Positions 21,757 through 55,401 of a stretch of DNA of 64,000 bases are shown here, one piece after another. Position 1 is the stretch's first letter. The number at the start of each line of letters is the position of its first letter. Made by a program: the position numbers and the translations under genes. The DNA comes from Alphaproteobacteria bacterium (GTDB lineage: Bacteria; Pseudomonadota; Alphaproteobacteria; JAUHZY01): the NCBI GenBank assembly GCA_030425825.1, contig JAUHZY010000001.1, positions 512,551 to 576,550 on the forward strand. The letters run 5' to 3'. Under the pieces are notes generated by a model. The model had not been told where the DNA came from. It saw nothing but the letters and a program-made list of their open reading frames with translations, and made no database searches.

Positions 21757-23238
21757 TTATGACCTGCCCCCAAACAAGATATCAATCAAGTTCTGTATTG
21801 ATCGGTTTGAGTTCGTCATTGAGAAAATGCTCAATTGCTCACGTGTCTCAAGAGCCAATCTATTCGCAGATTCTTCTTCTAAATCTGCCAGCGTCAGTTT
21901 ATCGCCTGCTTCTTCATGCGTGTTGATCAGATCTTCTGTGAACTCAAGGCGGGTTTGTAATAATGCAAAGTCTGTTGCAAAGCTGGCAGCAGTGCTGTCA
22001 ATCCTATTCAGGGCAGCGTCAAGTCCATCAAGTGTGGCGTCTAAACCTGCGGAAGAAAAATCAACACCCACAATCCCTAATGAGAAAGTTCGCATATCAA
22101 CAGAGTGAATTGTGTGTGTTGTGTTGTCACTAAAATCAACGATCAGATCTTCTGCATACTCACCTGCTGTCGGCGCATCTGTGTTGGCCCAGAAATCAGA
22201 TAAGTTTGCATTTTGAATCGTGCCATCATTTCCATTTCCTGAGCTGTCATATGCTGTCGTACCATTTCCTTCGTCTAATGGCCAATAACCTTCTAGGCTG
22301 GATCCTGGAATAGCGCCACTGGTGTAAAGTGTTGCGACTTCTGATGGTGTAAGCGCTTCATTCCAGAGGCCTGTATTGGACATAGACCCCTCAAAAAATG
22401 GCCCGCCTGGCTTCAAGGCACCAATTGTCATATCAACAGTGGGATTGTGCATTGATGTAATGGGGTCATCGTCGTTCATAACAACAGCAGCCTCTGCGCC
22501 ATCAACATACAATCTTAAGTCACCATTATCCCAAGTGAAGCCTACATGGTGCCAATTGCCGTCATTAATAGGAACGGTTGTCTCATAGTTCTTGCTTGTT
22601 CCATAAGTGCCATCACCACTAATCAAGACATTAAGCTCACCAGATGCTGTCAGGCCTAGATAAAATCCTCTTTGATTTCCACCTTGTTCATAATGGCCTG
22701 TCATATATGATGATGTGTCTGTTGTTTGTACCCAAGTAAAGTTTGATAAATCGGTTAAGCTATGGCCAATATCTCCAACGTTTATGTGATCATTTACTCC
22801 ATCAAATGTTGCGACAAAATCTTCTTCAACAAGTAAGTTTGTGCCGTTCATATGCGTATCAGCAATAAGGTTGTTATACTCACCCAGTAGTTTATTAGCT
22901 TGCGCTTCTAGGATGGTTCTCTGTGCTGCAGATGCATTGCGCGCTTCTTCAGCCAGACCCTTGACCTGCTCAATGATGGCGCGACCACTGGTCAGGCCAT
23001 GCTGCGTTGCTTTCAACGTACTGATCGCTTGATCAATATCGTCTTTGCGTTTCAGTAGGCTATCCGCCTTGTCATAAAGGCCCTTCGCTTTGAAGTACTC
23101 AACAGGACCGTCCAGAATGTCGTTGACCTTCTTACCTGTCGCCAGGCGCTTCTCAACAGTCGCTGTCAGATCCTTGATCTGTTGATGGTTCAACAAGCTG
23201 TTTCTCATCGCGGAAGTGAGCTTAATGTCATTGATCAT
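21757..23238 (-). CDS. fliC: flagellin with a LamG_3 module replacing the hypervariable domain
   Basis: Start MINDIKLTSAMRNSLLNHQQ preceded by a GGAGGTGGG RBS. The ORF-track start at 23292 lacks an RBS. Flagellin N and C termini (LTLADLEEESANRLALETREQLSI). The insert FDGVNDHINVGD...LYVDGAEA...LEGYWPLDEGNGTTAYDSSGNGNDGT is homologous to the first LamG module of the RTX protein. Confidence 0.8.
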   Translation of the reverse strand: MINDIKLTSAMRNSLLNHQQIKDLTATVEKRLATGKKVNDILDGPVEYFKAKGLYDKADSLLKRKDDIDQAISTLKATQHGLTSGRAIIEQVKGLAEEARNASAAQRTILEAQANKLLGEYNNLIADTHMNGTNLLVEEDFVATFDGVNDHINVGDIGHSLTDLSNFTWVQTTDTSSYMTGHYEQGGNQRGFYLGLTASGELNVLISGDGTYGTSKNYETTVPINDGNWHHVGFTWDNGDLRLYVDGAEAAVVMNDDDPITSMHNPTVDMTIGALKPGGPFFEGSMSNTGLWNEALTPSEVATLYTSGAIPGSSLEGYWPLDEGNGTTAYDSSGNGNDGTIQNANLSDFWANTDAPTAGEYAEDLIVDFSDNTTHTIHSVDMRTFSLGIVGVDFSSAGLDATLDGLDAALNRIDSTAASFATDFALLQTRLEFTEDLINTHEEAGDKLTLADLEEESANRLALETREQLSIFSMTNSNRSIQNLIDILFGGRS

Positions 23239-23470
23239 GACCCACCTCCATATGCTAGAGCAACATCTCGCGATGAGCTTATGATACGCCACGCGCTACG
23301 CGCTTCGGCTATGAGGGCGGAAGTGAGCTTAATGTCATTGATCATGACCCACCTCCATACGTTAGAGCAACATCTCGCGATGAGATGATGATACGCCACG
23401 CGCTACGCGCTTCGGCTATGAGGGCGGAAGTGAGTTTAATGTCATTGATCATGACCCACCTCCATATGTT
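23205..23470. repeat. tandem direct repeat of about 107 bp x3 (about 2.5 copies), spanning the fliC2 RBS, start codon and first 8 codons
   Basis: gcggaagtgagcttaatgtcattgatcatgacccacctccatatg...cgcttcggctatgagg recurs starting at 23211, 23318 and 23424 with a few substitutions. Confidence 0.85.
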
Positions 23471-23811: not shown

Positions 23812-24519
23812 TTATAGATAGCTGAATTGGGCGATAATACGTCCTTTGACCTGAATATTTTCAGGTGTACAGCAGTAATCTTCATAATTTGGGTTGTTGC
23901 AAGAAACCTTAAGGGTGCTAGATGATTGGTTTGTTAGAAGTTCTAGGCGCTTTATACGATAACCAACATCATCCCAAACAAGAAAAAAACCAGGAGGGCT
24001 GGGCTGGCAGTTAAGCGTATCAACCAACACCTTTGTACCCAAGGGAAGCTGAGGCGACATGCCGTCATCTCGGACTGTCATCATAAATAAGTACTTTAGG
24101 CTTGTCTTCGTTCTATTTTCAATAAAGTTAAGAGGAAGTTGCCAGTGGTTCACAGCATTGCAAGAGGGGTCTTCTAGATCAGAAAAATCGTTGATTTCCT
24201 GGATGGTTATCATTTTCTGATAAGGGTTTTCAAAGGCAACAGCCTCTTCACGAACAGCATTGTTGTTGGCTTCAAAATAGCTGGTGCTAATATTAATGCC
24301 TGCATGATGCATGACATCTGGAATGGAGGCGTCTATAAAAGCAGCGATAGAGCCCATTTCATGTAAGCGCAATTGTCGGTTGCCTTTAAGCATTCGAGAG
24401 ACTGCAGATGGTTCTATGTTGAGGTGTTTCGCAAGGTCAGCCTGTGTTTTACCTTGGTTTTTCAGTTTTGTTTTAAACCATCTTGCGTCCATAAAAACTT
24501 CCCATGATTTGTTGCTCAT
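23812..24519 (-). CDS. cI/LexA-like repressor: N-terminal XRE HTH plus C-terminal S24 peptidase domain
   Basis: GKTQADLAKHLNIEPSAVSRMLKG (HTH). The C-terminal GMSPQLPLGTKVLVD...VGYRIKRL pattern is typical of S24 self-cleaving repressors. The start may instead be at 24492 (MDARWF). Confidence 0.7.
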   Translation of the reverse strand: MSNKSWEVFMDARWFKTKLKNQGKTQADLAKHLNIEPSAVSRMLKGNRQLRLHEMGSIAAFIDASIPDVMHHAGINISTSYFEANNNAVREEAVAFENPYQKMITIQEINDFSDLEDPSCNAVNHWQLPLNFIENRTKTSLKYLFMMTVRDDGMSPQLPLGTKVLVDTLNCQPSPPGFFLVWDDVGYRIKRLELLTNQSSSTLKVSCNNPNYEDYCCTPENIQVKGRIIAQFSYL

Positions 24520-31074: not shown

Positions 31075-33210
31075 TTATTTTTCGCGGTTATACATTTTCA
31101 TTAAAAGCTTATCAATAATGTGATGCTTGCGCTCAATATTCTCATCATGCACCTTGCCTTTTTCAGTTTCACGGTACATGGGTTGTGCAAAAAGGTTCCC
31201 ATGTCTTAGCTTTACACGTTTGCGCGCAACTTCGTTTTGTTTATCTTTCAGGTATTCTTCAAACAAGATCGCAATCTTGCCGCTGACAAAATAAGCCAAA
31301 ATATCCGCAGGGTTGTGAACGCCAAAAACGTTAAGGTGAACATCTTTGGCAAAAGTATCTTCAATCAGTTTTGCAGCAACAAATTCAGGGTTTTCTTGTT
31401 GCGCATCCATCTCTAAAACATCCGAGCTGTGCATAATTTGTTCAATATGAAATTTGTAAATCAGTTTTGATATGATCGCGATCGTGCTAATAAAACTGTT
31501 AAAAGCGGGGTTAGAAATATTTACAAATACAATGTGTTTTTCAGGGTCGGTATAGCCAACTTCTTCGGTGTTTTTTGATTCATAAAACGTTACTCTGAAA
31601 GTTGGAAGCCCTAAAAAGCGAGAATATTTCTTCGCAAATTTATTAAGAATCTTTTGTTTTTTTGACAGCGGCCAGCGAGCTTCATTCGAGAAATTCTGCC
31701 AAGCATCCATCAGTAAGCTTGTTGAAATACCATCCTTCAAAAGGTTTAGGTTTTTAAGGCGCTGTACAAACTCTTTTGACTGGGCTTCTTGCTTTTCTAA
31801 AAATTCTTCAGGTAAATGCAAATGCTCGACAAGTAATGTGATATACATCCCATCATCAGGGTCTAGTTCACGCAAAATTGACCGCATAAGATTTGTGATG
31901 ATATGAGGTTCTAGGCGGTCAATTAACTCTGGTGATTCTTGTAAGAATTTACGTGCAATGTCTTCTGGAACACGGCCCTCCATCATCAAGATAACTTGAT
32001 AAAGGTCATAAGGTTGTGCCTGGATCAAAAAGCGGTCAACAATACGGTTGTCATAAATATTTTTTGAAAAATAATGTTCAAAAATATAGGCCATTAGAAA
32101 GTCTTGCCCAACATCCTTGCTAGACAAAGCTTTGGTCAATGTTTGAGGGTCTGTTTTATGGGCGAGGATGTCAAATAACTCAAAGTCTTCAAGGTGCCAA
32201 CGATGCGCGCGTAAGTCTTTATTTTGACGGACTTCATCAAATGCATCTTTTATTTTGTCATCAAGTCCAAGAACATAAATCCAAGATTTGCCATATGTTT
32301 TGTAAAGCTCTTCGAAGTAGCTGCCTGGTTTCTTCGAAAGGTCAAGAAGTTCTTCATTTGTCAGATTAAGACGAGAATCATGGTTGTCTCCTTGGAAAGA
32401 AAACGCATGGTTTAAATACCCAATCTTTTTCTTGCGTAACTCAAGGCGTATTTTCTTAGGCAGGTTAAGATAAAATGCCCAAAATGCAGGCTCTGTTTTT
32501 GTAAAATACGGCTCTGCATCATCCAAGAAATAGACTGTCTTTAAATCCTTTTCGTCCAATTGATCGCGGACTTCAGCAGGTAAAGAGCAATAATCCAACA
32601 TCATATCCTTGTTGACTTCTTTATGTTCGCTGTAAAATCGGCTTTTTGTCAGCTTATCAAAATCATTATGTGTTAATTTTTTGATCAATTTTAAGGGTGT
32701 TTTTTGAAATGCCTTCAGGCCATCAATACCAAAGCGTTCACGGCTACTGGCAGGAACTTGCAGGACTTTTTCACACCATTGGGGCCTGACGAATAAAACA
32801 TCACTCGCATATAAAAACTTAATGCATTTTGGTGAAAGATTGACAGATTTTTTGCGCAAATTGCCATAATGCTGCCATTTCAGCCAGCCATATTGAATGC
32901 GTCTTTTATGCCTTTTTTCATGGTTTTCACTTTTTGTATCAATACCTTGCGCATCTTCCAGATGTTTATACGCGACAGGCGAGGTCAACATCATATTGCG
33001 CAGGCCAACAATTTCATCAACTTTTTTAAGATCTTCATCGGTTATCACGGATGCAACTTGCTTGGGGAAGCCAGGTGGCAACGTTTTCATTGTAAAGCTA
33101 GAGCGCTGTATTGTGGGCGCTTCTGTTAACTTTGTTTCTTCACGCTTGCGCCGTGCAGTATCCAGCCGCTTTGAGATGGAAGAAGTTGATGATAGTGACT
33201 TTTTTTGCAT
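31075..33210 (-). CDS. large hypothetical protein (711 aa), candidate effector
   Basis: Long ORF converging on the 28041 gene. Confidence 0.5.
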   Translation of the reverse strand: MQKKSLSSTSSISKRLDTARRKREETKLTEAPTIQRSSFTMKTLPPGFPKQVASVITDEDLKKVDEIVGLRNMMLTSPVAYKHLEDAQGIDTKSENHEKRHKRRIQYGWLKWQHYGNLRKKSVNLSPKCIKFLYASDVLFVRPQWCEKVLQVPASSRERFGIDGLKAFQKTPLKLIKKLTHNDFDKLTKSRFYSEHKEVNKDMMLDYCSLPAEVRDQLDEKDLKTVYFLDDAEPYFTKTEPAFWAFYLNLPKKIRLELRKKKIGYLNHAFSFQGDNHDSRLNLTNEELLDLSKKPGSYFEELYKTYGKSWIYVLGLDDKIKDAFDEVRQNKDLRAHRWHLEDFELFDILAHKTDPQTLTKALSSKDVGQDFLMAYIFEHYFSKNIYDNRIVDRFLIQAQPYDLYQVILMMEGRVPEDIARKFLQESPELIDRLEPHIITNLMRSILRELDPDDGMYITLLVEHLHLPEEFLEKQEAQSKEFVQRLKNLNLLKDGISTSLLMDAWQNFSNEARWPLSKKQKILNKFAKKYSRFLGLPTFRVTFYESKNTEEVGYTDPEKHIVFVNISNPAFNSFISTIAIISKLIYKFHIEQIMHSSDVLEMDAQQENPEFVAAKLIEDTFAKDVHLNVFGVHNPADILAYFVSGKIAILFEEYLKDKQNEVARKRVKLRHGNLFAQPMYRETEKGKVHDENIERKHHIIDKLLMKMYNREK

Positions 33211-33968: not shown

Positions 33969-35495
33969 ATGAAAAAAGATCTGGATCAAGAAAAGCAAGA
34001 AATTACCAGTATCATATCTGACTTTATGATGGAACAAGGTGTTTTGTTTGATAAGTATATCGTCAATGTTTTGACGGTTCAGCCAACAGCATCTGCATTC
34101 AGGAAAGATATAAGCTTTGAGATCGCTTTTAAAGAGCCTCAATATAATGTTGGTGAAATTGACCTTAATGAATACAAAAATCTTAGCGCAGCTTTGATCG
34201 CAACATCATCCACGCAAAAAGTAACGACTGAAAAAACCAATGTTGAAGGCAAAAAGGGTTTTAAAGTTAATGTTCAGGGCTTTAGCAAAGATGTTTTAAA
34301 GCAAGAAATGGAGCACAAAGCCCTATCAAGCTTTTTAAAAAGAATAAAATGGGAAAAAAATTCAAACCCTGGGGTTTATAAGCTTTCTTTTGAAAATGGA
34401 AAGCCAAACCATCTTAATTTAAATTTTGAGCCAGATTATAATAGAAGCTTTATTCCTGGACGCATTAAAAAAACACGACAAGCATTTCTTAGGCTTTTAA
34501 AGGGTAAAAAATCAGTCGCGAAAAGTGTTGCAAAAGTGAACGTTGAAAAGCAACAGAAAGCAGAACAATACCTGCCATTACATCCTGCTAATCTAAAGGT
34601 TGGCTCAGAAGAGTATATGAATCAGCTCAATATTTTACAGGAACTTTTGTTTTTCTTAAACAAGAAGAGTACTTCTAAAAAAACAGATTATAGCTCTTTG
34701 ATACAGGATAATATTAATGCGCAGCGAAGCTTCATAAAAGACTTTATTCGCATTACAAAAGAAGAGGGGCAAGATCAAGGGCCTCAGCGCCAAGCTTTGT
34801 TGAGAGAGGTTTTTCCTCTTAGTGCCAATAAAGACAAGCAGCTCTCTCCTTTAATGATGAAGGTTGTTAAATCATCGTTTGGAAGTAAAGAAGCGTTTAC
34901 TGAGACGTTTTTATCTACGCCATTTAAAGCATTAAAGGCGGATAAAATACTTGATATGACAAAAAGCATCGCAGCAAGAGAAGCTGCTTTAGCATTGATC
35001 AAAACAGATAAATATACCCCCCTTATTGAATCCATAGAAAACTCTGAACAAGTTCGTCGCGCAGCAAAAGAAATGCGGGATGCTGTAAAGAAAAAAGAAG
35101 AGACTTTAACTGCATCTAACACCCCATTTATCCAGAAAAGTTACCAGTCAGTTCGTGACGTTGCAGAGGGTAAGCATCATACATTTACACGCTTACAAGA
35201 GTTATCAAAAGAATACAATTCTGTGTTGAACCGTATGGCTCGTTCGATTGGCAAGGCTGCGTCGTTAAATCGTGCGATGCGACAAATTGATCAATTGCTT
35301 GCACCTGAAAAATCCTTTCCTTTGAAGTTGGCTATTTTAAAATTTGCTAATGAAAGAGGCCTTTTGGAGAAAGAAAAAGGTGCAGAACGTTATTTGCAAA
35401 AATTGACAGGCCCAATGCCTGCTAAAAATCCAGAGGAAGCTCTGGATGCTGCTGCTCAAAAACTACCCATTTTTGCGTTTACCCACACAAAGTAG
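33969..35495 (+). CDS. hypothetical lysine-rich protein (508 aa)
   Basis: ORF followed by an intrinsic terminator. Confidence 0.5.
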   Translation: MKKDLDQEKQEITSIISDFMMEQGVLFDKYIVNVLTVQPTASAFRKDISFEIAFKEPQYNVGEIDLNEYKNLSAALIATSSTQKVTTEKTNVEGKKGFKVNVQGFSKDVLKQEMEHKALSSFLKRIKWEKNSNPGVYKLSFENGKPNHLNLNFEPDYNRSFIPGRIKKTRQAFLRLLKGKKSVAKSVAKVNVEKQQKAEQYLPLHPANLKVGSEEYMNQLNILQELLFFLNKKSTSKKTDYSSLIQDNINAQRSFIKDFIRITKEEGQDQGPQRQALLREVFPLSANKDKQLSPLMMKVVKSSFGSKEAFTETFLSTPFKALKADKILDMTKSIAAREAALALIKTDKYTPLIESIENSEQVRRAAKEMRDAVKKKEETLTASNTPFIQKSYQSVRDVAEGKHHTFTRLQELSKEYNSVLNRMARSIGKAASLNRAMRQIDQLLAPEKSFPLKLAILKFANERGLLEKEKGAERYLQKLTGPMPAKNPEEALDAAAQKLPIFAFTHTK

Positions 35496-35568
35496 GGGAA
35501 GGTTTAAGCGTCTTCTACTTGCCATAAGCGTACGCTTGGATGCATACTCTTAAACATAATCGGAAAAG

Positions 35569-35602
35569 ACCCGCTTTAGAGAAATCTGGAGCGGGTTTTT
35601 TT
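35569..35602 (+). terminator. rho-independent terminator
   Basis: ACCCGCT-(14 nt loop)-AGCGGGT forms a perfect 7-bp stem, followed by TTTTTTT. Confidence 0.65.
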
Positions 35603-35636
35603 ATGTCTTTTTCCCATTCCATATCAGGAGGTTACA

Positions 35637-36185
35637 ATGGATCCTATCACGCAAATTATCACAGATGCTTATGAAAACGTAAAAGACTTTACAACATCTT
35701 TCCGTCGCGATTTTCATCCCACAAAAAATGATAATACAAGATTTCGTAAACATGATTGGAAGCCTGAAAAGCGTGGACAAGCACTGTTGGATAAGCATGA
35801 GCGTCAAGACTTGATACAGGCGCTTGCGGAAGGTGCCAAAGAAGAAGAGATGGCAGAGCTGTATGGGTTAACTGTGCGTCAAGTAAAGAAAATGAAAAAC
35901 AATTACCGTGATGATTACAAGCGTTATAAGAAGCTGTTTGAAAAAGAGATGATCGAAGTTGAAAAACAGTCGACATGCGACCCTATTATGCTTGCCTTGC
36001 GCGCTTTAAAAGGGCGTGCATTAATGCACCCAAATGGCGCTGTTTTTCTAGATGGTAAACCGTCATGCGTTAAAGAAATGATGGCCTCAGCAAATATGGC
36101 GCTGAAGAAAGATGGCAAAGATCCCATTCCATACCCTGGTGTTCACGACCTACCAGATCACGGCGCGCCTGGGTTTAATGTATAA
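35637..36185 (+). CDS. hypothetical protein with a possible HTH (182 aa); alternative small-terminase candidate
   Basis: ELYGLTVRQVKKM HTH-like segment. Position upstream of terL. Confidence 0.4.
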   Translation: MDPITQIITDAYENVKDFTTSFRRDFHPTKNDNTRFRKHDWKPEKRGQALLDKHERQDLIQALAEGAKEEEMAELYGLTVRQVKKMKNNYRDDYKRYKKLFEKEMIEVEKQSTCDPIMLALRALKGRALMHPNGAVFLDGKPSCVKEMMASANMALKKDGKDPIPYPGVHDLPDHGAPGFNV

Positions 36186-36234
36186 GGCATAAACCAAGTA
36201 AAACAAATCATCTGCAACAGCACACATATTCAGC

Positions 36235-36432
36235 ACGCGACTGCGCGACGTTGCTGGTGCAACGAAAGCCTGCGTGGGTGAGCGCTAAATATAAATAAAG
36301 AGCGCGACTGCGCGACGTTGCTGGTGCAACGAAAGCCTGCGTGGCGAACGCTAAATATAAATAAAGAGCGCGACTGCGCGACGTTGCTGGTGCAACGAAA
36401 GCCTGCGTGGCGAACGCTAAATATAAATAAAG
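36235..36432. repeat. three tandem 66-bp direct repeats (iteron-like) immediately upstream of the terS-like gene
   Basis: agcgcgactgcgcgacgttgctggtgcaacgaaagcctgcgtggcgaacgctaaatataaataaag repeated three times. Each unit contains the inverted repeat cgttgc-TGGTG-gcaacg and a TATAAAT-like box. Confidence 0.85.
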
Positions 36433-36454
36433 AGCAAGGGAGGTACTTACACTT

Positions 36455-36691
36455 ATGAAAAACAATAATGATAAAAATGAAGTGCAGTCCCTTGCTCGCC
36501 ATTTTACAGAAGATGCGCTGAAAACGCTTGTTGGTATTATGAATGACCCCGAAGCCTCTGTGTCTTCGCGCGTTTCTGCTGCACAAACAATTCTAGATCG
36601 TGGTTGGGGAAAGCTGGGCAGTGGGGCAGCTAAAGATGAGCGTACAGCAGATGTTGTTGCCGAGTTTCTAAGCTGTTTACAAAAAGGGTGA
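36455..36691 (+). CDS. putative phage terminase small subunit-like DNA-binding protein (78 aa)
   Basis: AAGGGAGG RBS. Motif RVSAAQTILDRGWGK resembles the conserved LDRGWGKP segment of many small terminases. Positioned upstream of terL. Confidence 0.4.
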   Translation: MKNNNDKNEVQSLARHFTEDALKTLVGIMNDPEASVSSRVSAAQTILDRGWGKLGSGAAKDERTADVVAEFLSCLQKG

Positions 36692-37337
36692 TACTTTCTG
36701 CAACACTCTCTTTTTTTATCGCCAAACAAAAGATCAGCTTGTTAGCATGAAAAGGTGTTTTCAGTAATAATGTTAGTCGCATTCTTAAAATCGAGGATGG
36801 AGAAGATGCTGAAAAACAAATCACTGCGTTCACTGTTTGCCCTTAACAGATCCGTTTATCAGGGCGATGTCATGAGACTGGGAAAAAACTTTACAGGGCG
36901 TAATGCGCCACCTGTAAGACCATATCGTCTGATGGCTTTTTCTGCGCAAACAACACCTGTATCAATTGTGAAGTAATTTTCCTGAACGCCTTATGGCAGT
37001 GATGTACAAAAAAGGTGGGACCCCAAACAATTTCCCTAAAGGAAGAAGGAGGAGGGAGCAGGGAAGACCATCTGAAGCCCCTTTCTGTAGGCTTAACGCG
37101 ACTCATTCATGAGGGTTTATTATTTTCATCGCTATTCAACCAACAAAGTTGTTTTTTGTACTTTTTATTTTTCCGTGGAAGTAAGAGTAAAGCCTCCCTT
37201 TCTTACCTCCCTTTTCTTTTTTTAGTGAATCGGATTATATCATAGATAAATCGGAAAAGGAAACACTTTTTTCTCTTTTTTTTATAAATTCACATTGTTT
37301 TCATATAAAACAATAAGATAATTGGAAACTTTATAGG

Positions 37338-37775
37338 TAACGTTCAAACGCCACGCAGGCTTTGCGTTGCACTGGCAACGTCGCGCGGTCGCGCTCTGGC
37401 TATGCGCGCAGTTGCAGGCAGTGGGGGTGTGTAAGTGTTACGGGGAGGTGTTTCTTTTTTCATTCCCTCTCCCCTGGCGGGAGAGGGTGAGGGGGAAGTA
37501 TGCTGTGAGGAAGAGAGATGTGTCATAAAGATTATCTCACCCTCATCCCAACCTTCTCCCATCAAGGGAGAAGGAGATTATAGGGGAGAGAGGATGTTGA
37601 TTATAAAGCACAGCAGCCACACCGCCAGATGCAGCGCGCATAGCCAGAGCGCGACCGCGCGACGTTGCCAGTGCAACGCAAGCCTGCGTGGCGTTTGAAC
37701 GTTATACATAACTCCAGAGCGCGACCGCGCGACGTTGCAGGTGCAACGTAAAGCCTATGTGGCGTCTGAACGTTA
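37338..37775. repeat. palindromic element: 72-bp terminal inverted repeats (37338-37409 and 37634-37704) flanking a hairpin-rich 220-bp core, plus one additional direct copy of the same about 55-bp repeat unit (37716-37775)
   Basis: taacgttcaaacgccacgcaggctttgcgttgcactggcaacgtcgcgcggtcgcgctctggctatgcgcgc is the near-perfect reverse complement of 37634-37704. The unit is related to the 66-bp iterons at 36235-36432. The core contains CCCTCTCCCctggcGGGAGAGGG and CCTTCTCCCatcaaGGGAGAAGG hairpins. Confidence 0.8.
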
Positions 37776-37816
37776 TCTATAATTACGCGCAGCGTATAGC
37801 GTGCGTTATAAATTAC

Positions 37817-47686: not shown

Positions 47687-48481
47687 ATGCAAAACATGAT
47701 TTTTGACATTCCAGGACAACCAAGATTAACAATCCCCAAAACAAATGGCCCTGCCATTCGCCAAGCTATGGAGGCACAGCGCAAAGCAATCCAAGCGCAG
47801 AATCAGTGGAATCACTCTGATGCAGCATATGAATTTATTAAAAGGCATGAGAAGTATCGCCCTTATCCATATTTGGATACGAGAGGAAATGTGACCATAG
47901 GTGTTGGGACGATGGTGCCTGATGAATCTGTGATGATAGATACGCCGCTTGTTGATTTGCTTGGCAACCCTGTATCAAGAAAACAGCGTGGACAAGTCTT
48001 TCGTGATATAAAGGCATTGTGGCAACAAGAGAAATATAGAAACTTACAAGCGGAATATTTCCCAAATCCACATAAGGTGACTTTACCTGAGTCAGAAGCC
48101 GATCGTATCGCAAGAAAGTATATAGAAGAGGAACTGCCTCACATTAAAAATAAATTCCAAGGATTTGATACTCTGCCTGATGCTGCAAAAACAGCTATTA
48201 TCGACATGCAGTATAACTTAGGAGATGCAGGATTTCAGCGGACGGTTCCTGAGGGATCGAACAAAACGCCGTGGCCAAATTTTTATAGTGCAATTGATGC
48301 GCGTGATTTTGAAACTGCTGCCCGTGAAGCAAGTCGTAAAGGCATTGGCCTTGGGAGGAATCAAGAAACCCAGCAATTATTGATTGACGCCGCCAAAGAA
48401 TGGCAGCAACAGCAATCACAAAAGCCTGTTGCGCCAACACCAGAAGCGCAAGAGAAAGGCGGACTGTTATCTTTTTTCTAG
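47687..48481 (+). CDS. GH24 (T4-type) lysozyme-like protein, copy 1 of 3
   Basis: FIKRHEKYRPYPYLDTRGNVTIGVGTMV matches the catalytic E...D...T...TIGxG motif of phage-type lysozymes. AAGGAG RBS. The start is set at MQNMIFDIPGQ. Confidence 0.7.
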   Translation: MQNMIFDIPGQPRLTIPKTNGPAIRQAMEAQRKAIQAQNQWNHSDAAYEFIKRHEKYRPYPYLDTRGNVTIGVGTMVPDESVMIDTPLVDLLGNPVSRKQRGQVFRDIKALWQQEKYRNLQAEYFPNPHKVTLPESEADRIARKYIEEELPHIKNKFQGFDTLPDAAKTAIIDMQYNLGDAGFQRTVPEGSNKTPWPNFYSAIDARDFETAAREASRKGIGLGRNQETQQLLIDAAKEWQQQQSQKPVAPTPEAQEKGGLLSFF

Positions 48482-48955
48482 AGGTTTATGGTGATACACT
48501 GAGAAGTGCCTGTCATAAGTCGGTTGATAATCATAGCGACTTTTAAGCCTTCTTAAAGCATCACCATAATATTTCCATGATCCAGTAGAGATTGAGACTC
48601 TTTCCCAAGGTTGGCGAAAGCTCGAGATTTCTAGTCGTTTAAGAAAGCCTTCTTTTACGCTGGGTGGCAAGTCAGTATAGTCAAAATCGTCTGGAAATAT
48701 TCTATAGCACTGCAAAACCAGAACTTTTTCACCATTGTGAATAAGGTAGGGACAATTCAGGTCGAAAACTTCATATTTATTTTCATAGGTGATTTTTGTT
48801 TGTGAGACTGTCATTTTGCCACCTGCTGCAGGGCTTGGATGCCACACGCCATAAAACTCTTTATTTTTAAAAGGTTCTGTTAAAGGCGGATCGGGTGTAT
48901 CTGCATAGATACCCAGTACAATTAAACCCACAAAGAACATCAGAAAATATTTCAT
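48467..48955 (-). CDS. secreted partner protein with signal peptide (candidate immunity protein or lysozyme inhibitor), copy 1
   Basis: MKYFLMFFVGLIVLGIYADTPDPPLTEPFKNKEFYGVW is conserved in all three copies. The 3' end overlaps the lysozyme gene by 15 bp, convergently. Confidence 0.6.
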   Translation of the reverse strand: MKYFLMFFVGLIVLGIYADTPDPPLTEPFKNKEFYGVWHPSPAAGGKMTVSQTKITYENKYEVFDLNCPYLIHNGEKVLVLQCYRIFPDDFDYTDLPPSVKEGFLKRLEISSFRQPWERVSISTGSWKYYGDALRRLKSRYDYQPTYDRHFSVYHHKPLEKR

Positions 48956-49024
48956 GGATCAAGTTTAACCACAGGTTGTGATGTGTGCAATCTGTTTGTT
49001 TTATTAACCAAGGAGAGATTTTAA
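48956..49024. promoter_or_regulatory. conserved divergent intergenic spacer (family A), copy 1
   Basis: accacaggttgtga..gcaatctgtttgttttattaaccaaggagagattttaa shared with 50243-50311 and 51548-51613. Confidence 0.6.
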
Positions 49025-49786
49025 ATGAAAAATATGATTTTCGATATTCCAGGACAGGCAAGGCGTGTTATTCCTTTGTCTGATAAGCAAGCTATTATAA
49101 ACGCACAAATTGCACATAGAGAGGCAATGGATCAACAGAAAGCACAGGGCAGCTGGAAATATTTGGACCAGGTATTTGATTTTATCAAAGAACATGAAGG
49201 AGGAATTGTTCCAGCTCCATATCTTGATACAACAGGAAATGTAACAGTTGGTATTGGTCACAGAGTGCCAAATGCGCAAGCTATGACCAAGTTGCCTTTA
49301 GTAAATCCATTAGGTCACGATGTATCTGATGAAGTAAAACGACAGGCTTTTGATGCTGTGTATGGATTGCGTGAAAAACAAGAATATCACAATAAAATTG
49401 CTAAAAAGTTTCCAAGCCCATACAAGGTTCGATTACCAGATTCAGAAGCAGTACGCATTGCCAAAGAGTATATCAACAATGAATGGCCTTTGGTTCAGCA
49501 CAAGTTTAATGGTTTTGATACATATCATCCTAAAGCACAAATGGCTGTGATGGATATTCAGTATAACATCGGGAATAAAAATTTTTCTCAAGAGAAATGG
49601 CTAAAATTTTATGATGCAATGGCACGGCGAGATTATGAGTCTGCGGCCGTAGAGTCTCATCGCAAGGATGTTGGTCAAAATCGGAATGAAGAGGTGCGAA
49701 AGCTATTGCTTGAAGCAGCAGAAGAAACACGTGCGCAAACAAAGTCGCCTTCGAATGATGTTGATTTACTTGGAGAATGGTTTTGA
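49025..49786 (+). CDS. GH24 lysozyme-like protein, copy 2
   Basis: FIKEHEGGIVPAPYLDTTGNVTVGIGHRV. The N-terminal 45 aa are identical to copy 3. Confidence 0.7.
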   Translation: MKNMIFDIPGQARRVIPLSDKQAIINAQIAHREAMDQQKAQGSWKYLDQVFDFIKEHEGGIVPAPYLDTTGNVTVGIGHRVPNAQAMTKLPLVNPLGHDVSDEVKRQAFDAVYGLREKQEYHNKIAKKFPSPYKVRLPDSEAVRIAKEYINNEWPLVQHKFNGFDTYHPKAQMAVMDIQYNIGNKNFSQEKWLKFYDAMARRDYESAAVESHRKDVGQNRNEEVRKLLLEAAEETRAQTKSPSNDVDLLGEWF

Positions 49787-50242
49787 TGTTGTTGAGGTTG
49801 GGCGATAGTAATATCCTTCAAAACATTTTGAGTAGAGCATGTCTGGTTGGTAGGAAATACCAAAGAAAGCACCCGCATATGTATCGCAATAGCTGACTGA
49901 AAGGCTAACACCTTTATCTAAGTATCGAGGTTTTTTGATTGCGAGGCGAATCAATTCATACTTTGTTTCGCCGTAAGGGTATTTGACGAGGCATTTCAAA
50001 ATAACGTCTTGTTTCCCGTTATACAAAAGATAGGGACATTCTTCATATGAATCGTTCTTTTCAAATGAGATGCCTGTCTGTGTGATGGTCATTTTCCCCG
50101 CGGCAAGAACAGACGTGCTGCTTGCTTCCCACACACCATAAAACTCTTTATTTTTAAAAGGTTCTGTCAAAGGTGGATCGGGAACATCTGCGTAGATGCC
50201 CAGCACAATAAGACCAACAAAAAACATCAGAAAATACTTCAT
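49766..50242 (-). CDS. secreted partner protein, copy 2
   Basis: Same signal peptide and N-terminal 40 aa as copies 1 and 3, with a diverged C-terminal part. 21-bp convergent overlap. Confidence 0.6.
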   Translation of the reverse strand: MKYFLMFFVGLIVLGIYADVPDPPLTEPFKNKEFYGVWEASSTSVLAAGKMTITQTGISFEKNDSYEECPYLLYNGKQDVILKCLVKYPYGETKYELIRLAIKKPRYLDKGVSLSVSYCDTYAGAFFGISYQPDMLYSKCFEGYYYRPTSTTSKPFSK

Positions 50243-50311
50243 GTAATCAGCATAACCACAGGTTGTGACTTGCGCAATCTGTTTGTTTTATTAACCAAGG
50301 AGAGATTTTAA
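50243..50311. promoter_or_regulatory. conserved divergent intergenic spacer (family A), copy 2
   Basis: taatcagcataaccacaggttgtgacttgcgcaatctgtttgttttattaaccaaggagagattttaa contains the palindrome TTGCGCAA. Confidence 0.6.
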
Positions 50312-51085
50312 ATGAAAAATATGATTTTCGATATTCCAGGACAGGCAAGGCGTGTTATTCCTTTGTCTGATAAGCAAGCTATTATAAACGCACAAATTGT
50401 ACATAGAGAGGCAATGGATCAACAGAAAGCACAGAAAAACTGGAAGCATTTAGACAATACGTTTGATTTTATTAAGATTCATGAGGGAGATATTTCACAA
50501 ACACCTTACCTTGATACGACAGGCAATGTAACAATCGGTATTGGACATAAAGTAACAGATGCCGAAGCGATGGTGAAACTGCCATTGGTTAATCCGCTGG
50601 GACATGATATTTCAGATGATATGAAGCGACAGGCTTATCATGAGATTTATGAATTGCGTAATAAGCCTGAGTATAAGAATCGTGTAAATGGTTCATTTCC
50701 TAATCCTTACAAAGTAAAATTACCAGATGCAGAAGCTGTCCGTATGGCAAAAGAATACATCAATAATGAGCTGCCTTTAGTTCAAGATAAGTTTAATGAT
50801 TTTGATACTCTTCATCCCAAGGCACAAACAGCGATTATGGATATTCAGTACAATATTGGAAATAAAAATTTTTCTAAAGAGAAGTGGCCAAAGTTTTATA
50901 CGGCAATAGATCAACGTGACTATGATACCGCAGCGGCAGAATCTCATCGTAAGGATGTTGGGATAGAGCGAAATAAAGAAGTAAAAAGGTTGCTGCTTGA
51001 GGCAGCAGAAGAAATAAAGGCGGGTGCGATCGCAGCACCAACTCAAAACAATAGCACTAGTGGATTACTTGGTGAATGGTTTTGA
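50312..51085 (+). CDS. GH24 lysozyme-like protein, copy 3
   Basis: FIKIHEGDISQTPYLDTTGNVTIGIGHKV. Confidence 0.7.
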   Translation: MKNMIFDIPGQARRVIPLSDKQAIINAQIVHREAMDQQKAQKNWKHLDNTFDFIKIHEGDISQTPYLDTTGNVTIGIGHKVTDAEAMVKLPLVNPLGHDISDDMKRQAYHEIYELRNKPEYKNRVNGSFPNPYKVKLPDAEAVRMAKEYINNELPLVQDKFNDFDTLHPKAQTAIMDIQYNIGNKNFSKEKWPKFYTAIDQRDYDTAAAESHRKDVGIERNKEVKRLLLEAAEEIKAGAIAAPTQNNSTSGLLGEWF

Positions 51086-51547
51086 AGGAGGGGATGACTC
51101 TTTGTAGTAATATCCGCCACCACAATTTGAATATTTCATATATGGTTGTGAGGTAATGCCAAAAAAAGCACCGCTATATGTTTCGCAAAACCTTACATGA
51201 AGCATAATATTTTCATTTGAGTATTTTGGCCTTTCGAGAGAAAGACGTATAAGCATCAATTCTTGTGGCGCAAAGCCATCAGGATAATATGTCTTACATT
51301 GAAGGACAATATCTTGTGAACCATTATACAAAAGATAAGGGCATTTTTCGTAGGAATTGTTCTTTTCAAACGAAATCTTCGTTTGCGCAATGGTTATTTT
51401 ACCTGCGGGTCGAACCGTATTACTTATAGGTCTCCACACGCCATAAAATTCTTTATTTTTAAAAGGCTCTGTCAAAGGTGGATCGGGAACATCTGCGTAG
51501 ATGCCCAGCACAATAAGACCAACAAAAAACATCAGAAAATACTTCAT
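51065..51547 (-). CDS. secreted partner protein, copy 3
   Basis: MKYFLMFFVGLIVLGIYADVPDPPLTEPFKNKEFYGVW. Confidence 0.6.
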   Translation of the reverse strand: MKYFLMFFVGLIVLGIYADVPDPPLTEPFKNKEFYGVWRPISNTVRPAGKITIAQTKISFEKNNSYEKCPYLLYNGSQDIVLQCKTYYPDGFAPQELMLIRLSLERPKYSNENIMLHVRFCETYSGAFFGITSQPYMKYSNCGGGYYYKESSPPSKPFTK

Positions 51548-51613
51548 GTAATCAGCATAACCACAGGTTGTGACTTGCGCAATCTGTTTATTTTATTAAC
51601 CAAGGAGGAAAAA
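51548..51613. promoter_or_regulatory. conserved divergent intergenic spacer (family A), copy 3, here driving the portal gene
   Basis: Near-identical to 50243-50311 up to the RBS (aaccaaggagg). Confidence 0.6.
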
Positions 51614-53605
51614 ATGTCTAAAAATGATATCCAAACAATTTTAAAGCAAGAAATTGATCAATCGCTGTCCTATATGGGCGGAGAATTGGCACATTCGCGT
51701 AAAAAGGCGATGGAATATTACCTAAGCAAACCATTTGGCAACGAGGTTGAAGGCCGCAGCCAGGTTGTGTCTAGCGATGTTGCTGATACAATTGAATGGA
51801 TCTTGCCATCACTGCTTAAGATCTTTACATCCAGCGACAAGGTTGTGCGCTTTGACCCTGTTGGCGCAGAAGATGAGGCCGTTGCTGATCAAGCCACAGA
51901 TTACGTTAACCATATCTTTCAGAAGGATAATCCTGGTTTTGTGATTTTGTATACGTGGTTCAAAGATGCTTTGCTGCAAAAAAACGGCTTTGTGAAGTAT
52001 TATTGGCAAAAGAAAAAAGATATTTCGAAAGAAACATTTAAAGCATTAAGTGAAGATGCGTATGCACTGTTGCTTGCCGAAGTAGAGGCCAATAGCGACC
52101 TCAAAATAAAATCAAGAAAAGCAAATAAAATTAAGGAGAAAGAAGATGAATCTAATTCAAAAGATAAAGAAAGTAAAAACATTTCTGCAACATACGATGT
52201 TGTGGTTGAGCGACATATTGAAAAGAGCCGTATCTGCGTTAAAAACGTTAGCCCAGAAGAGTTTCTTATACATCCTGACGCGAAAACGATAGATGATGCT
52301 GCTTTTGTCGCACATCGCTTGGAGCGTTCGATTTCTGACCTTATCGCATCTGGTTATGATCGTAAAACAGTTGAAGCCTTAAGTGACGATGATGGCTTAC
52401 ATTTCAATGAAGAGCGTCAAGCACGACGTTTGTTCGATGACACGCCCTTGCATGAACGCAGCGATAACACACGCAAAGTCCCTGTATATGAGTGCTATAT
52501 TCGCCTTGATGAAGATGGAGATGGTATAGCAGAGCTTCGCAAAGTCACAGTTGCAGGGGCTGAACTAGAGGTTTTAGATAACGAAGAAGTTGACTTTATT
52601 CCTTTTGCTAGCCTGTCACCTGTGTTGATTCCACATCAATTCTATGGCTTATCTATCGCAGATCTTGTGATGGACTTGCAGCTCATTAAATCTACTGTGA
52701 TGCGCCAAGTGATTGATAATATGTATCTGACAAACAATAACCGTCATGTTGTCGTAGATGGACAAGTGAATCTGGATGATTTGATGACTTCACGTCCAGG
52801 TGGTGTGGTGCGTGTGAAAAACCCTGCTGCCATTCAAGCACTAAATGCGCAAAGCATGCCTGAAAAAGCTTTTGGCTTGCTGCAATATATTGATGGTGTC
52901 CGCGAAGAACGCACAGGCGTTACCAAGAATATGCAGGGCATGGATACAAATACGCTGAACAAAACAGCGAGCGGAATAAACCAAATCATGACTGCTGCAC
53001 AGCAACGGATTGAACTGATTGCGCGTGTATTTGCAGAAACAGGCGTGAAGGATTTATTCTCGAACTTGTTAAAGCTGGTTGTTAAATACCAAGATCAACC
53101 CCGCATGATTCGTCTTCGTAATGAGTGGGTGCCGATGGATGGTTCACAGTTTGACCCTGATATGGATGTCAGCGTTTCAGTTGGTTTAGGCACAGGAAAC
53201 AAAGATCAATCTTTGGCACATTTACAGAATATTTTGAACATCCAAAAAGAAGCTATTTCTGTACAAGGAGGTGTTTTTGGACCACTTGTTACTTTGGATA
53301 ATATTCATAATACACTTGCAAAAATGGTTGAAAATGCAGGCTTGAAAAATGTTGCTGAGTTCTTCCAAAAACCTAATATGGAACAGCTTATGGCGCAAGA
53401 AAATCAAAAAGGTACGGCGCCAAATCCACAGGCACAAGCCATGCTTGAGCAATTGAGGCTGGCATCAGAGAAAATCCGCATTGATGGCATGAAAGCTGAG
53501 ACAGATCGCTTGAAGGCCGAAACTGATGCGGCAATCAAAGAGCGTGAAATTCGCTTGAAAGAAGAAGCCGCACGACAAAAAACAGAAGAAGCTTCTGATG
53601 TTTAA
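51614..53605 (+). CDS. phage portal protein
   Basis: 663 aa. The start MSKNDIQTILKQE follows an AAGGAGG RBS; the ORF-track start at 51383 runs back through the partner gene and spacer. Portal-like central region and a C-terminal coiled coil. Gene order terS-like, terL, ..., portal. Confidence 0.6.
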   Translation: MSKNDIQTILKQEIDQSLSYMGGELAHSRKKAMEYYLSKPFGNEVEGRSQVVSSDVADTIEWILPSLLKIFTSSDKVVRFDPVGAEDEAVADQATDYVNHIFQKDNPGFVILYTWFKDALLQKNGFVKYYWQKKKDISKETFKALSEDAYALLLAEVEANSDLKIKSRKANKIKEKEDESNSKDKESKNISATYDVVVERHIEKSRICVKNVSPEEFLIHPDAKTIDDAAFVAHRLERSISDLIASGYDRKTVEALSDDDGLHFNEERQARRLFDDTPLHERSDNTRKVPVYECYIRLDEDGDGIAELRKVTVAGAELEVLDNEEVDFIPFASLSPVLIPHQFYGLSIADLVMDLQLIKSTVMRQVIDNMYLTNNNRHVVVDGQVNLDDLMTSRPGGVVRVKNPAAIQALNAQSMPEKAFGLLQYIDGVREERTGVTKNMQGMDTNTLNKTASGINQIMTAAQQRIELIARVFAETGVKDLFSNLLKLVVKYQDQPRMIRLRNEWVPMDGSQFDPDMDVSVSVGLGTGNKDQSLAHLQNILNIQKEAISVQGGVFGPLVTLDNIHNTLAKMVENAGLKNVAEFFQKPNMEQLMAQENQKGTAPNPQAQAMLEQLRLASEKIRIDGMKAETDRLKAETDAAIKEREIRLKEEAARQKTEEASDV

Positions 53606-54364
53606 ACAACAAGGTGTTTTTGGCAGAACACTTGAAGTAAGAACAGGAGGTCATGCTTCTGTTTCGCCTCGTACAATGGAACGTCGTGTAACAGATCCAA
53701 GTCCTGCGCTTCAAGACTTTGCCACGAAGGAGGGCAGCCAAGAGGCTGTCCCTTCTCATGACATCACCTATGTCGAAGGCGGTGCGTTGAATGATTATCC
53801 ATCACCCTCTGTTGGTGAAGGACAAAGCAGCAGCAATAGATGGAATGACTACGCCCCAGATCCCTTCGGCTGGGACAGTTTACCGGGGTCAGAACACCTC
53901 CCTTCAAAGCGTGGCTGGACATTGCCATCAGGTAGGTCCATCACAGCGCCATTCCCAGGACAAGAAGAAAGCTATTTCCGTTGGAGTGAGAATAAAATGG
54001 CACAACATCAGCGAAATATTGATGCATTAGATGCTGCCTATACTGTGTTCATGGAGGGAGAGGCACGCCAGCATGCTTCGGAACAACGAGATACAATGAG
54101 ACGCCAAGCTTTATACAACATCAATAACGGTATGGGGGCTGTGACGGCGGGTATGATATGGCACAACAAAGAAGAGAAGCAGGCCAGGTGAGTTTTTCTA
54201 GAACGACGCGTGATGTTATCAAAAGCCAAGCTTCCATGTTTGGTGCTAATAAAATACTTGGTGATTACGCAAATCCTGTGATCCAAAATTTGGGAGAGGA
54301 TATCATCAAAGACAGAATCAATCAGATAGGAGATTATCTGAGGAATCTAGGCCCAATTTACTAG
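53598..54364 (+). pseudogene. glycine-zipper toxin-like gene, deletion/frameshift derivative (two ORF fragments, 53598-54191 and 54158-54364)
   Basis: The N-terminal part matches the 56260 and 58047 proteins (TYVEGGA...WNDY.PDPFGWDSLPGSEHLPSKRGWTLPSGRSITAPFPGQEESYFRWSENK) up to GMGAVTAGMI. The C-terminal match (SQASMFGANKILG...INQIGDYLRNL) then continues in the +1 frame. The glycine-zipper segment is missing. Confidence 0.55.
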
Positions 54365-55195
54365 CTAATAAGTTTGGTCAATTTTTTGGAAAAACACTTG
54401 AATTGGCATACCTGGACGCCAGTTTCCAGCTAAACTCTTGATCTTTTCTTTCTGCTTTAAGGAAAGTCGCTGACGAGATTTTTCACGAAGAGACAAGACT
54501 TCCTTATCATTCAAAACAGACTCTTTATATTTAGGAAAAAACAAATGAGGATACAGGTCTCTTAAAAGATCGCTTTTTTGCTTATATGCTATGTCTGCAA
54601 TATCAAGAAGAAATTGTACTTTGAGTGGTTTGTGAAGACTTTTGTACTCTTTTTCATCCATAATAAAAGCGATCAGAAAGATACCGTTTAAATCGCCTTC
54701 ATCGGCGGCTTGCACAAAGTATTTTAAAGCATCTTGTGGTGTTTCACTTTCATATAAAAAGAATAGCCCAAGGTCAATCAAAGCACCGCCATCCTTTTTC
54801 TCTGCTGCCTTCTGTGTCCATTTCCATGCTTGTTTTGGGTCTTGCTTGACGGCAATGCCTTCGCTGTAAAAACGACTTATCTTATTCATGGCTTCTGGAT
54901 CACCTGATCTTGCGGCTTCTTGATATAGTGCGAAAGCCTTGGCAGGATTCTTTGCAACGCCCAAGCCATGTTCCCAAATAAGACCCTCTAATGTCTGAAA
55001 ACGTGGATGATCAGCAGAAGATGCCAGTACAAGCACCTGGTCATATTGTTTGTTATCAAAAGCAGTGAGTGCATTATCCCACAGCTGTTGGTCAATGGGC
55101 TGATCATAAGGGCTTGATTGATGAGAGGTATAAAACACACCTGCCGCAACAAGACATAAAACAAAAACAAAGGGGAAGAGAAGTTTCTTTTTCAT
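54365..55195 (-). CDS. Sel1-repeat protein with signal peptide, copy 1
   Basis: MKKKLLFPFVFVLCLVAAGV signal. Sel1-like repeats LEGLIWEHGLGVAKNPAKAFALYQEAARSGDPEAMNKISRFYSEGIAVKQDPKQAWKWTQKAAE. Confidence 0.7.
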   Translation of the reverse strand: MKKKLLFPFVFVLCLVAAGVFYTSHQSSPYDQPIDQQLWDNALTAFDNKQYDQVLVLASSADHPRFQTLEGLIWEHGLGVAKNPAKAFALYQEAARSGDPEAMNKISRFYSEGIAVKQDPKQAWKWTQKAAEKKDGGALIDLGLFFLYESETPQDALKYFVQAADEGDLNGIFLIAFIMDEKEYKSLHKPLKVQFLLDIADIAYKQKSDLLRDLYPHLFFPKYKESVLNDKEVLSLREKSRQRLSLKQKEKIKSLAGNWRPGMPIQVFFQKIDQTY

Positions 55196-55259
55196 AAAGC
55201 AACTTTAACAACCAGCAATTGAAAAAACTATCTTTTATTTTACCAATGGAGACCACCTA
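55196..55259. promoter_or_regulatory. conserved divergent intergenic spacer (family B), copy 1
   Basis: ataaagcaactttaacaaccag.aattgaaaaaactatcttttatttta recurs at 56200, 57987 and 59727. Confidence 0.6.
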
Positions 55260-55400
55260 TGTCGAAGGCGTTGTGGTACAAAGCAGCATCACTTCCTTTT
55301 ACAAGCATATCGCCAGCTATTGGGACGACGGCAAGCCATATTATACGACCTGCTGTCAAACAAGGAGTTGATGAGATATATAATTATTTTGACTATTAGT
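55255..55400 (+). pseudogene. decayed 5' fragment of a toxin-like gene
   Basis: METTYVEGVVVQSS... matches the N-terminus NDETTYVEGGAVQSS of the 56260 and 58047 genes, then degenerates and stops. Confidence 0.4.
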
Positions 55401-55401
55401 C

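Follow-up and report, generated by a model that had tools for sequence, protein, structure and literature searches.

Repetitive extragenic palindromic (REP) sequences of proteobacteria, with their clusters, the bacterial interspersed mosaic elements (BIMEs), and the REPINs, consist of GC-rich extragenic hairpin units that stabilise mRNA and act as transcription barriers. The mycobacterial interspersed repetitive units (MIRUs) are intergenic minisatellites within operons, dispersed at tens of loci. In phages, repeated sites lie beside small terminase genes: the cosB sites of lambda (R3-R2-R1) are upstream of Nu1, and pacL and pacR of SPP1 bracket the start of gene 1. Here we describe a family of repeats around a gene resembling a small terminase (terS-like) in a 64-kb stretch of an alphaproteobacterial genome (contig JAUHZY010000001.1, positions 512,551 to 576,550). 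This whole stretch is called the window and its numbering is used throughout; names of the form L0xx denote collected loci and contigs that were compared with it. The window holds flagellar genes (1-23 kb) followed by a decayed prophage. The striking repeats and palindrome beside the terminase gene are read here as a recent addition in one lineage. The explanation we tentatively favour is that they are non-coding repeats which were produced in situ, through duplications both tandem and inverted, as cargo was inserted, and which now serve at most as a leader or as an RNA or transcription barrier.

Six copies and one partial copy of a GC-rich repeat of about 66 bp surround the terS-like gene:

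36208-36231, plus strand: left extension of unit A1, beginning CTGCAACAGCACACATATTCAG..., seen in the inverted-repeat pair I3 (36212-36267 against 37362-37417, 80%) and in the unit alignments
36232-36298, plus strand: unit A1, 67 nt, about 95% identical to A2
36299-36364, plus strand: unit A2, 66 nt, with AGAGCGCGAC-T-GCGCGAC, CGTTGC-TGGT-GCAACG, AAGCCTGCGTGG and the tail box GGCGAACGCTAAATATAAATAA
36365-36435, plus strand: unit A3, the same as A2, closed by AAGAG at the array end; downstream come a GGGAGG Shine-Dalgarno sequence and, about 22 nt past the array, the terS-like ATG
37331-37429, minus strand: B1, inverted unit with extension, left palindrome arm, placed by repeat comparison, pattern match and half-against-half alignment
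37430-37613, no strand assigned: palindrome interior, composed of diverged homologous halves (half-against-half alignment and fold)
37614-37711, plus strand: B2, direct unit with extension, right palindrome arm, 71/72 identical to B1 over the unit
37714-37782, plus strand: B3, direct unit that follows B2 in tandem, with the stop codon of an opposite-strand gene of 461 aa 35 nt away
39296-39326, plus strand: partial seventh copy, the leader box of the large terminase (TerL) gene, AAAACGTGCTTGGCGATCGTTAAATATAAA, matching the A-unit 3' half at 25/30 positions and ending 12 nt before the TerL ATG

The full copies are the three tandem A units (36232-36435), the inverted B1 (37331-37429) and the direct B2 and B3 (37614-37782). 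Tandem Repeats Finder reports the A units as an array at 36236-36435 with a period of 66, 3.0 copies and 97% matches. A 31-nt core pattern, AGCGCGAC-Y-GCGCGAC-GTTGC-NRGT-GCAACG, has six matches in the window (plus strand 36234, 36301, 36367, 37648 and 37718; minus strand 37365-37395) and none in 100 dinucleotide shuffles. Both searches bear out the original prediction, made from the sequence of the window, of a repeated unit of about 55-66 bp at these places. No further full copy was found across the 64-kb window by blastn or with an nhmmer profile built from the six units; all copies are confined to 3.1 kb, and none occurs in the remaining ~61 kb or in the 15 kb of L004, which is a second, intact prophage of the same genome. 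The GC content of the units (54-62%) compares with 40% for the whole window.

Each unit reads, in order, AGAGCGCGAC-Y-GCGCGAC, which provides two direct heptamers, the hairpin CGTTGC-NNGT-GCAACG, AAGCCTGCGTGG and a tail. The dyad has a 6-bp stem and a 4-nt loop whose first two bases vary (TG, CA, AG), so that the stems are invariant across units and the centre is variable. The stem CGTTGC/GCAACG had been predicted correctly, but the loop had been given as 5 nt. The AT box TAAATATAAAT occurs in the A units only, and the B units carry TAYMYATAA at that position. Of three supposedly perfect 66-bp repeats, A2 and A3 are indeed identical (66/66) but A1 is only ~95% identical to A2, and is 67 nt long through a 1-nt indel. 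B1 and B2 match at 71 of 72 positions over the unit (98.6%), and B2 and B3, a second tandem pair with a period of 70, are ~89% identical. Between A and B units 42 of 46 core positions are identical (~91%), against 12 of 24 in the tail (Fisher p=2e-4). Such a graded series, from 100% for A2 and A3 downwards, gives the copies an age structure that fits repeated local duplication, while the better conservation of the 46-nt core makes sequence-specific use, or gene conversion between copies, likely. The left extension of A1 (~25 nt) has its homologue in the inner extension of both palindrome arms, B1 and B2.

As predicted, the A array ends 22 bp upstream of the terS-like start codon. A reading frame (36318-36458) is open through A2 and A3 and stops at the TGA of an ATGA that overlaps the terS-like start, a layout resembling translational coupling. 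The frame is shut in A1 by the 1-nt indel, and its overlap with the terS-like start may therefore be coincidence.

Positions 37331-37711 form one imperfect palindrome of 381 nt: arm B1 pairs with arm B2, and half-against-half alignment matches the two interior halves as well, each half containing a hairpin of the CCCTCTCCC/GGGAGAGGG type. The arms are nearly perfect over their outer ~80 nt (98.6%) and ~60% identical in the interior. A hairpin element with near-perfect terminal inverted repeats of 72 bp had been proposed here. The element is present, although it extends over 381 nt and not 360 bp, and its terminal repeats match at 71/72 and continue to ~99 nt at lower identity. Folding of this region had been suggested as a check (37338-37704), and the palindrome is extremely stable: the single strand 37325-37790 folds at -277 kcal/mol (z=-17.8). 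Single units are not unusually stable as folds (z -1.8 to +1.0). No T-run follows either end of the palindrome on either strand, and within it the terminator scan picks out no more than a minor 7-bp stem. A classical intrinsic (Rho-independent) terminator was rejected because the hairpin lacks a canonical U-tract on both strands. Between and including its arms (37331-37429 and 37614-37711) the foldback is shorter than 600 bp and contains only short, overlapping open reading frames (ORFs). A six-frame chimeric query of the repeat ORFs against 5.8 billion proteins gave no match, self-matches also being absent, and is therefore uninformative about further genomic copies.

Assembly error is an unlikely source of the repeats. 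Three independent short-read contigs (Logan) from the same organism break at the repeat boundaries, L074 ending at 36265, L073 spanning 36406-37391 and L005 starting at 37661, and each break is the point at which 31-mers become common to several copies. These contigs tie B1 and B2 each to its own unique flank; as short reads they speak for the flanks and junctions, and not for the copy number of the A array or the interior at 37392-37660.

Comparison with related loci places the repeats in one lineage. The most informative is L031, a 26-kb contig from ENA that carries the orthologous locus of a related organism and aligns in blocks of 67-78% nucleotide identity (window 31148-32829, 35481-36143, 36458-36682, 37026-37332, 39339-40684 and 51595-53401). 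Both repeat clusters fall in gaps between these blocks. The gene for a helix-turn-helix (HTH) protein that precedes the terS-like gene overlaps it stop to start in L031 (ATGA) and is separated from it by 22 nt in L075, a locus from an alphaproteobacterial metagenome-assembled genome; in the window the spacing is 269 nt and holds the A array. Downstream, L031 homology ends at 37332, one base past the start of the left palindrome arm (37331), and resumes at the TerL start, such that window positions 37333-39295, with the B element and the 461-aa gene, replace an unrelated 0.8 kb with a different opposite-strand gene in L031. L075, whose TerL is 64% identical, has the same gene skeleton and no repeats. 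Among 77 collected loci (702 kb) the nhmmer unit profile matched only L005, L073 and L074, which are the short-read copies of this locus. No tandem array of at least 50 bp lies within 3 kb either side of the gene in any of 41 loci encoding relatives of the small terS-like protein, and no such repeats occur near the terminase genes of L032, L004 or L076. The absence of the repeats from orthologous and related loci marks them as a lineage-specific addition of recent date rather than a working component that the module has conserved.

The 3' half of the A unit has a relative outside the array, in the leader of TerL. The leader box (39296-39325 as aligned) is the best alignment of an A unit to non-repeat sequence in the window, on either strand, and none of 2908 random windows reaches its score (0/2908). 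Against an expectation of 0.07, a 19-nt box from the A-unit 3' half, GGCGAWCGYTAAATATAAA, has four occurrences, of which the A array holds three and the TerL leader one. The 13-mer AT box GCTAAATATAAAT has a single occurrence in the 77 non-window loci, 61 nt upstream of TerL in L075, against an expectation of ~7e-6 per 100 nt. In sequence the TerL-leader copy is intermediate, having CGTTA as in B tails and AAATATAAA as in A tails, and together with B3 it brackets the 461-aa gene in direct orientation. This resemblance suggests that at least the tail half of the unit is related to an ancestral element upstream of TerL, and the A-unit 3' half at the TerL leader, with the AT box in L075, makes the family seem locally grown from the TerL leader region. 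We treat this local origin as a lead, as the relation is a post-hoc observation on a short AT-rich sequence.

On the favoured explanation, a segment related to the TerL leader region would have been duplicated in tandem (A1-A3 and B2-B3) and inverted (B1/B2), and these duplications would coincide with remodelling of the decayed prophage through insertion of opposite-strand cargo. The A array separates the HTH gene from the terS-like gene and would give the latter a new leader with an AT box and the GGGAGG Shine-Dalgarno sequence. With B3, the 381-nt palindrome lies where convergent transcription units meet, at the 3' end of the 461-aa gene, and its very stable hairpin would there act as a barrier to transcription or RNA decay. 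Both the leader role of the A array and the barrier role of the palindrome are inferred from position only. Judged from the sequence comparisons above, the repeats do not belong to the ancestral working parts of either the packaging or the replication machinery.

Several observations weigh against local duplication of this kind. The GC-rich core is without a counterpart in the TerL leaders of L031 and L075, and only the tail of the unit has a local relative. The contrast between core and tail (42/46 against 12/24) points to constraint by a binding protein or transposase and not to neutral junk, and conservation of the palindrome arms is highest at the outer ends, as is typical of elements whose ends are maintained by function; together these two features are expected of a transposable foldback element or of protein-binding sites. 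A canonical U-tract after the hairpin is lacking on both strands. The copy count covers ~79 kb (window plus L004) of the 1.66-Mb genome, which is assembled as a single contig, and dispersed copies are possible beyond it.

A first alternative is a mobile element, resembling a miniature inverted-repeat transposable element (MITE) or a REPIN, which had also been among the functions originally proposed. It would be a non-autonomous foldback of 381-452 bp (B1-core-B2, optionally extended by B3) that depends in trans on a transposase whose gene lies elsewhere; the A array would then be explained as a tandemly amplified solo end or as the product of a local hop. We consider this doubtful, although the anatomy does resemble such elements. 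The terminal inverted repeats are 72-99 nt long and best conserved in their outermost part, the foldback is non-coding and under 600 bp, its GC content is foreign to the surrounding DNA, and the core is conserved above the tail. Both insertions lie in intergenic spacers, and the foldback is present here and absent from L031 and L075, the L031 homology stopping at 37332 where the left arm starts at 37331. If the repeat is taken to start at TAGGTAACG, TA stands at both ends of the foldback (TAGGTAACG...CGTTATCTA), a possible target-site duplication; TA is also part of the unit's own TATAA tail, from which such a duplication is indistinguishable, and this part of the proposal stays ambiguous. Against mobility, the ~79 kb sampled contains no copy outside the 3.1-kb stretch, the element matches nothing in any public collection searched, and the window contains no transposase gene and no gene for a REP-associated tyrosine transposase (RAYT). 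Tandem arrays of an element end would also be unusual for MITEs, and the resemblance of the unit tail to the resident TerL leader argues for a local origin.

The unit core had no real match in genome contigs (the source genome was not included), in metagenome contigs (two patterns) or in viral contigs, where three IMG/VR matches share only a 20-mer with it, and the whole region had none among phage and plasmid records. With no public sequence matching the unit, it represents a new repeat family. Rfam 15 gave no match at the gathering threshold in the 64 kb and only chance-level matches (E>=0.5) in 35.9-38.0 kb, and scans for tRNA and tmRNA genes and for promoters and terminators assigned nothing to the units. 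Two further candidates were rejected. The units abut head to tail without spacers, as a CRISPR array would not, and the Rfam CRISPR-repeat matches are sub-threshold and elsewhere; a tRNA-derived att site was dismissed on anatomy.

The genes around the repeats were scanned with Pfam, PHROGs, NCBIfam and PADLOC, covering most ORFs of at least 120 aa in the window and every ORF flanking a repeat:

23812-24519: cI-like repressor gene
35637-36185, plus strand: gene for the HTH protein, 182 aa, Pfam HTH_23 at E=0.0018 (under the curated cut-off), preceding terS in every related locus
36455-36691, plus strand: terS-like gene, 78 aa, an oligomerisation core without N-terminal HTH, PHROG 641 at E=7e-5
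37817-39202, minus strand: opposite-strand cargo gene, 461 aa, with no family match, absent from L031, between B3 and the TerL leader box
39339-40715, plus strand: TerL gene, Terminase_6N and PHROG 2, with homologues
51383-53605: SU10-type portal gene

The terS-like label of the small gene is supported, on its PHROG terS match (E=7e-5), on its profile and on synteny. The profile of the 78-aa family matches the PaP3 and NV1 small terminases, which have solved structures, at E=2e-5 and over only their residues ~72-135. In L032, an intact phage contig, the gene for an 83-aa homologue lies directly before TerL and overlaps it, and an SU10-type portal gene comes next after TerL. The N-terminal HTH of PaP3 TerS binds DNA (PMC7672466). 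As the family aligns only to residues ~72-135 of the PaP3 and NV1 proteins, it lacks this N-terminal DNA-binding HTH, and the label is justified in the sense of an HTH-less mini-TerS. Truncation of the terS-like gene by the A array was considered and rejected, since the family alignment shows the conserved core to be complete. The adjacent 182-aa HTH protein is a candidate DNA-binding partner. Its homologues hold the same position in L004, L031 and L075, and a single-sequence AlphaFold model (mean predicted local distance difference test score, pLDDT, 52) is confident only at residues ~50-100, which form three helices.

In a second alternative the units are arrays of binding sites for a sequence-specific protein, which would be either the HTH protein as DNA-recognition partner of the mini-TerS, at a pac- or cos-like site, or a regulator of late genes that controls the leaders of terS-like and TerL. 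The location would suit packaging: the three direct units end 22 nt before the terS-like ATG, placed as lambda cosB is with respect to Nu1, and the B units, 0.65-1.1 kb downstream (~0.9 kb), recall the bracketing of SPP1 gene 1 by pacL and pacR. Two direct GCGCGAC heptamers and a dyad with invariant stems and a variable centre have the look of a dimer-binding site, and the core is again better conserved than the tail. The tail box common to the TerL leader is what a shared control element would have, the HTH gene is always adjacent, and TerL and portal are intact, with 75-86% amino acid identity between window and L031. Conservation speaks otherwise. L031 and L075 keep the HTH protein, the mini-TerS and TerL and yet have no such units, and there is no comparable array in the 41 loci of mini-TerS relatives or in L032, L004 and L076. 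The mini-TerS itself is without the domain that binds DNA in PaP3 TerS (PMC7672466); TerS-DNA recognition has been reviewed (PMC7672466, PMC9611059). No capsid or tail gene was recognised in the window, making self-packaging doubtful, and no sigma-70-type promoter is predicted in any unit. The TerL leader box is only 12 nt from the ATG, too close for the -10 element of a leadered mRNA. We therefore regard binding-site arrays as improbable, and a pac or packaging site, one of the original suggestions, is disfavoured by the absence of the units from both orthologues and the 41 terS loci and by the HTH-less mini-TerS. For operator sites of a regulator, likewise among those suggestions, the evidence tips neither way.

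A more elaborate version, highly improbable in our estimate, would have the gene skeleton domesticated, like a gene transfer agent (GTA), or delivering cargo, with the units as new cis sites for the HTH half of a split small terminase, where they would mark the start of packaging or place the leaders of terS-like and TerL under common control. In a related reading, the box shared with the TerL leader would be the recombination site at which the cargo cassettes were captured.

A prophage replication origin of the iteron type had been offered as well, and direct repeats with AT-rich boxes do adjoin a large palindrome. The units, however, are 66-70 bp against ~17-22 bp for iterons, and the window yielded no gene for an initiator, a helicase loader or any other replication protein; L004, in contrast, has SSB, AAA_24 and HTH_36 genes well upstream of its terS. 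There is no DnaA box (with at most one mismatch) in 35.5-39.5 kb and no change of GC skew at the repeats, which are in addition absent from the orthologous loci. The AT-richest stretch (37276-37320) is conserved spacer and lies outside the arrays. With no initiator, no DnaA box, a 66-bp unit and this phylogenetic distribution, an origin is barely credible.

The gene order itself is conserved where the repeats are not. Three alphaproteobacterial lineages share a skeleton consisting of a 711-aa gene on the minus strand, the HTH protein, the HTH-less mini-TerS, opposite-strand cargo and TerL (window 31075-53605; L031 7168-16478; L075 147-6142). In the window and L031 it continues with more cargo and the SU10-type portal, and different cargo genes occupy the same slots. 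The cargo between TerL and portal amounts to 10.6 kb and is partly on the opposite strand, with proteins of 277 aa and 297 aa and a 687-aa GH108 lysozyme-like protein that has a long C-terminal extension. The corresponding distance in L004, the intact paralogous prophage, is 370 nt. L004 has a TerL 75% identical to that of the window and a contiguous order of a 145-aa HTH protein, a full-length Terminase_2 terS, TerL and portal, without such repeats. No transposase, recombinase, replication initiator, capsid or tail gene was recognised in the window by the four databases; most other scanned ORFs had no family, and those among the phage genes are mostly on the opposite strand. The skeleton could be a domesticated or GTA-like phage remnant. 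A promoter-like site for the 461-aa gene lies at 39264-39235 on the minus strand. In L031 a 135-aa opposite-strand gene upstream of TerL is bracketed by a weak 35-nt direct repeat (11137-11171 and 11748-11782, 74% identical). The TerL leader is one of its two copies, so that the arrangement resembles, perhaps by chance, that of B3 and the leader box around the 461-aa gene.

Between the terS-like gene and the palindrome, 37026-37332 (L031 10625-10931) is conserved and non-coding, with 68% nucleotide identity and with purine tracts complementary to pyrimidine tracts (GGAAGAAGGAGGAGGGAG ... CTCCCTTTCTTACCTCCC). No Rfam family matches it, and it could be a structured 3' untranslated region or a small RNA. 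At ~37255-37290 it contains an AT-rich terminator-like hairpin with a T8 run, also conserved in L031, which probably already ends the terS-like operon. Upstream of it a small ORF (36755-36976, 73 aa) has no family match, and its C-terminal ...PVRPY(R/Q)LM(A/T)FS is conserved in L031, where the counterpart is frameshifted (in a contig of 2x coverage).

Elsewhere in the window, ~2.4 tandem copies of a 107-bp unit, 96-98% identical, lie at 23210-23468 between a flagellin-like gene, whose 5' end they overlap, and the cI-like repressor gene, and may mark the prophage boundary. Two sets of triplicated gene pairs flank the portal gene. One, at 47543-51547, pairs a protein of ~255-312 aa (plus strand) with one of ~160 aa (minus strand) at 44-72% amino acid identity; the other, at 53598-59726, pairs a protein of ~197-295 aa (plus strand) with a ~280-aa Sel1-repeat protein (minus strand), and at the DNA level identity reaches 97% over 456 nt. 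Next to the flagellar hook gene flgE is the gene for an 806-aa protein (389-2809) with calcium-binding repeats of the RTX type; this protein and the many large orphan proteins suggest that the source organism lives in association with a host.

For annotation, and on present evidence, the repeats are neither an origin nor a conserved packaging signal and should not be labelled ori, pac or cos. Were the units binding sites, they would give a handle on how an HTH-less mini small terminase finds DNA, and on the co-regulation of packaging genes scattered among cargo in a remodelled prophage; were they mobile, they would represent a new MITE-like family in poorly sampled host-associated alphaproteobacteria. 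A more unusual feature than the repeats is the conserved packaging-gene skeleton interleaved with variable cargo.

The units can be set beside the described systems. Like lambda cosB and SPP1 pacL and pacR, they are repeated sites immediately upstream of, and bracketing, a small terminase gene. Those sites, however, are ~7-20 bp and bound by the HTH of TerS, whereas here they are 66 bp beside an HTH-less TerS-like protein and are not conserved in orthologous or related loci. With MIRUs they share tandem repeats of 50-100 bp between operon genes, and the A2-A3 frame likewise ends in an ATGA overlapping the next start, but a single locus is known here and it includes an inverted copy. MITEs and foldback elements, such as those of the Correia, ERIC or RPE type, are similarly non-coding, under 600 bp and intergenic, with terminal inverted repeats forming one long stem-loop, and occur in one lineage but not in its relatives; the present element differs from them in its ambiguous target-site duplication, its single known locus, its ends in tandem arrays and a tail homologous to a resident gene leader. 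From REP, BIME and REPIN sequences it departs in unit length (66-72 nt), in a foldback of 381 nt against ~100, in single units that are not unusually stable as folds, in having no RAYT gene in the window, and in one known locus against a defining high copy number. Its GC-rich extragenic hairpin units are nevertheless arranged as theirs are, tandem and inverted, in spacers (intergenic or intercistronic) and where convergent genes end, with an inverted pair forming a long hairpin. The kind of repeat is a familiar one, a lineage-specific intergenic palindromic or tandem repeat.

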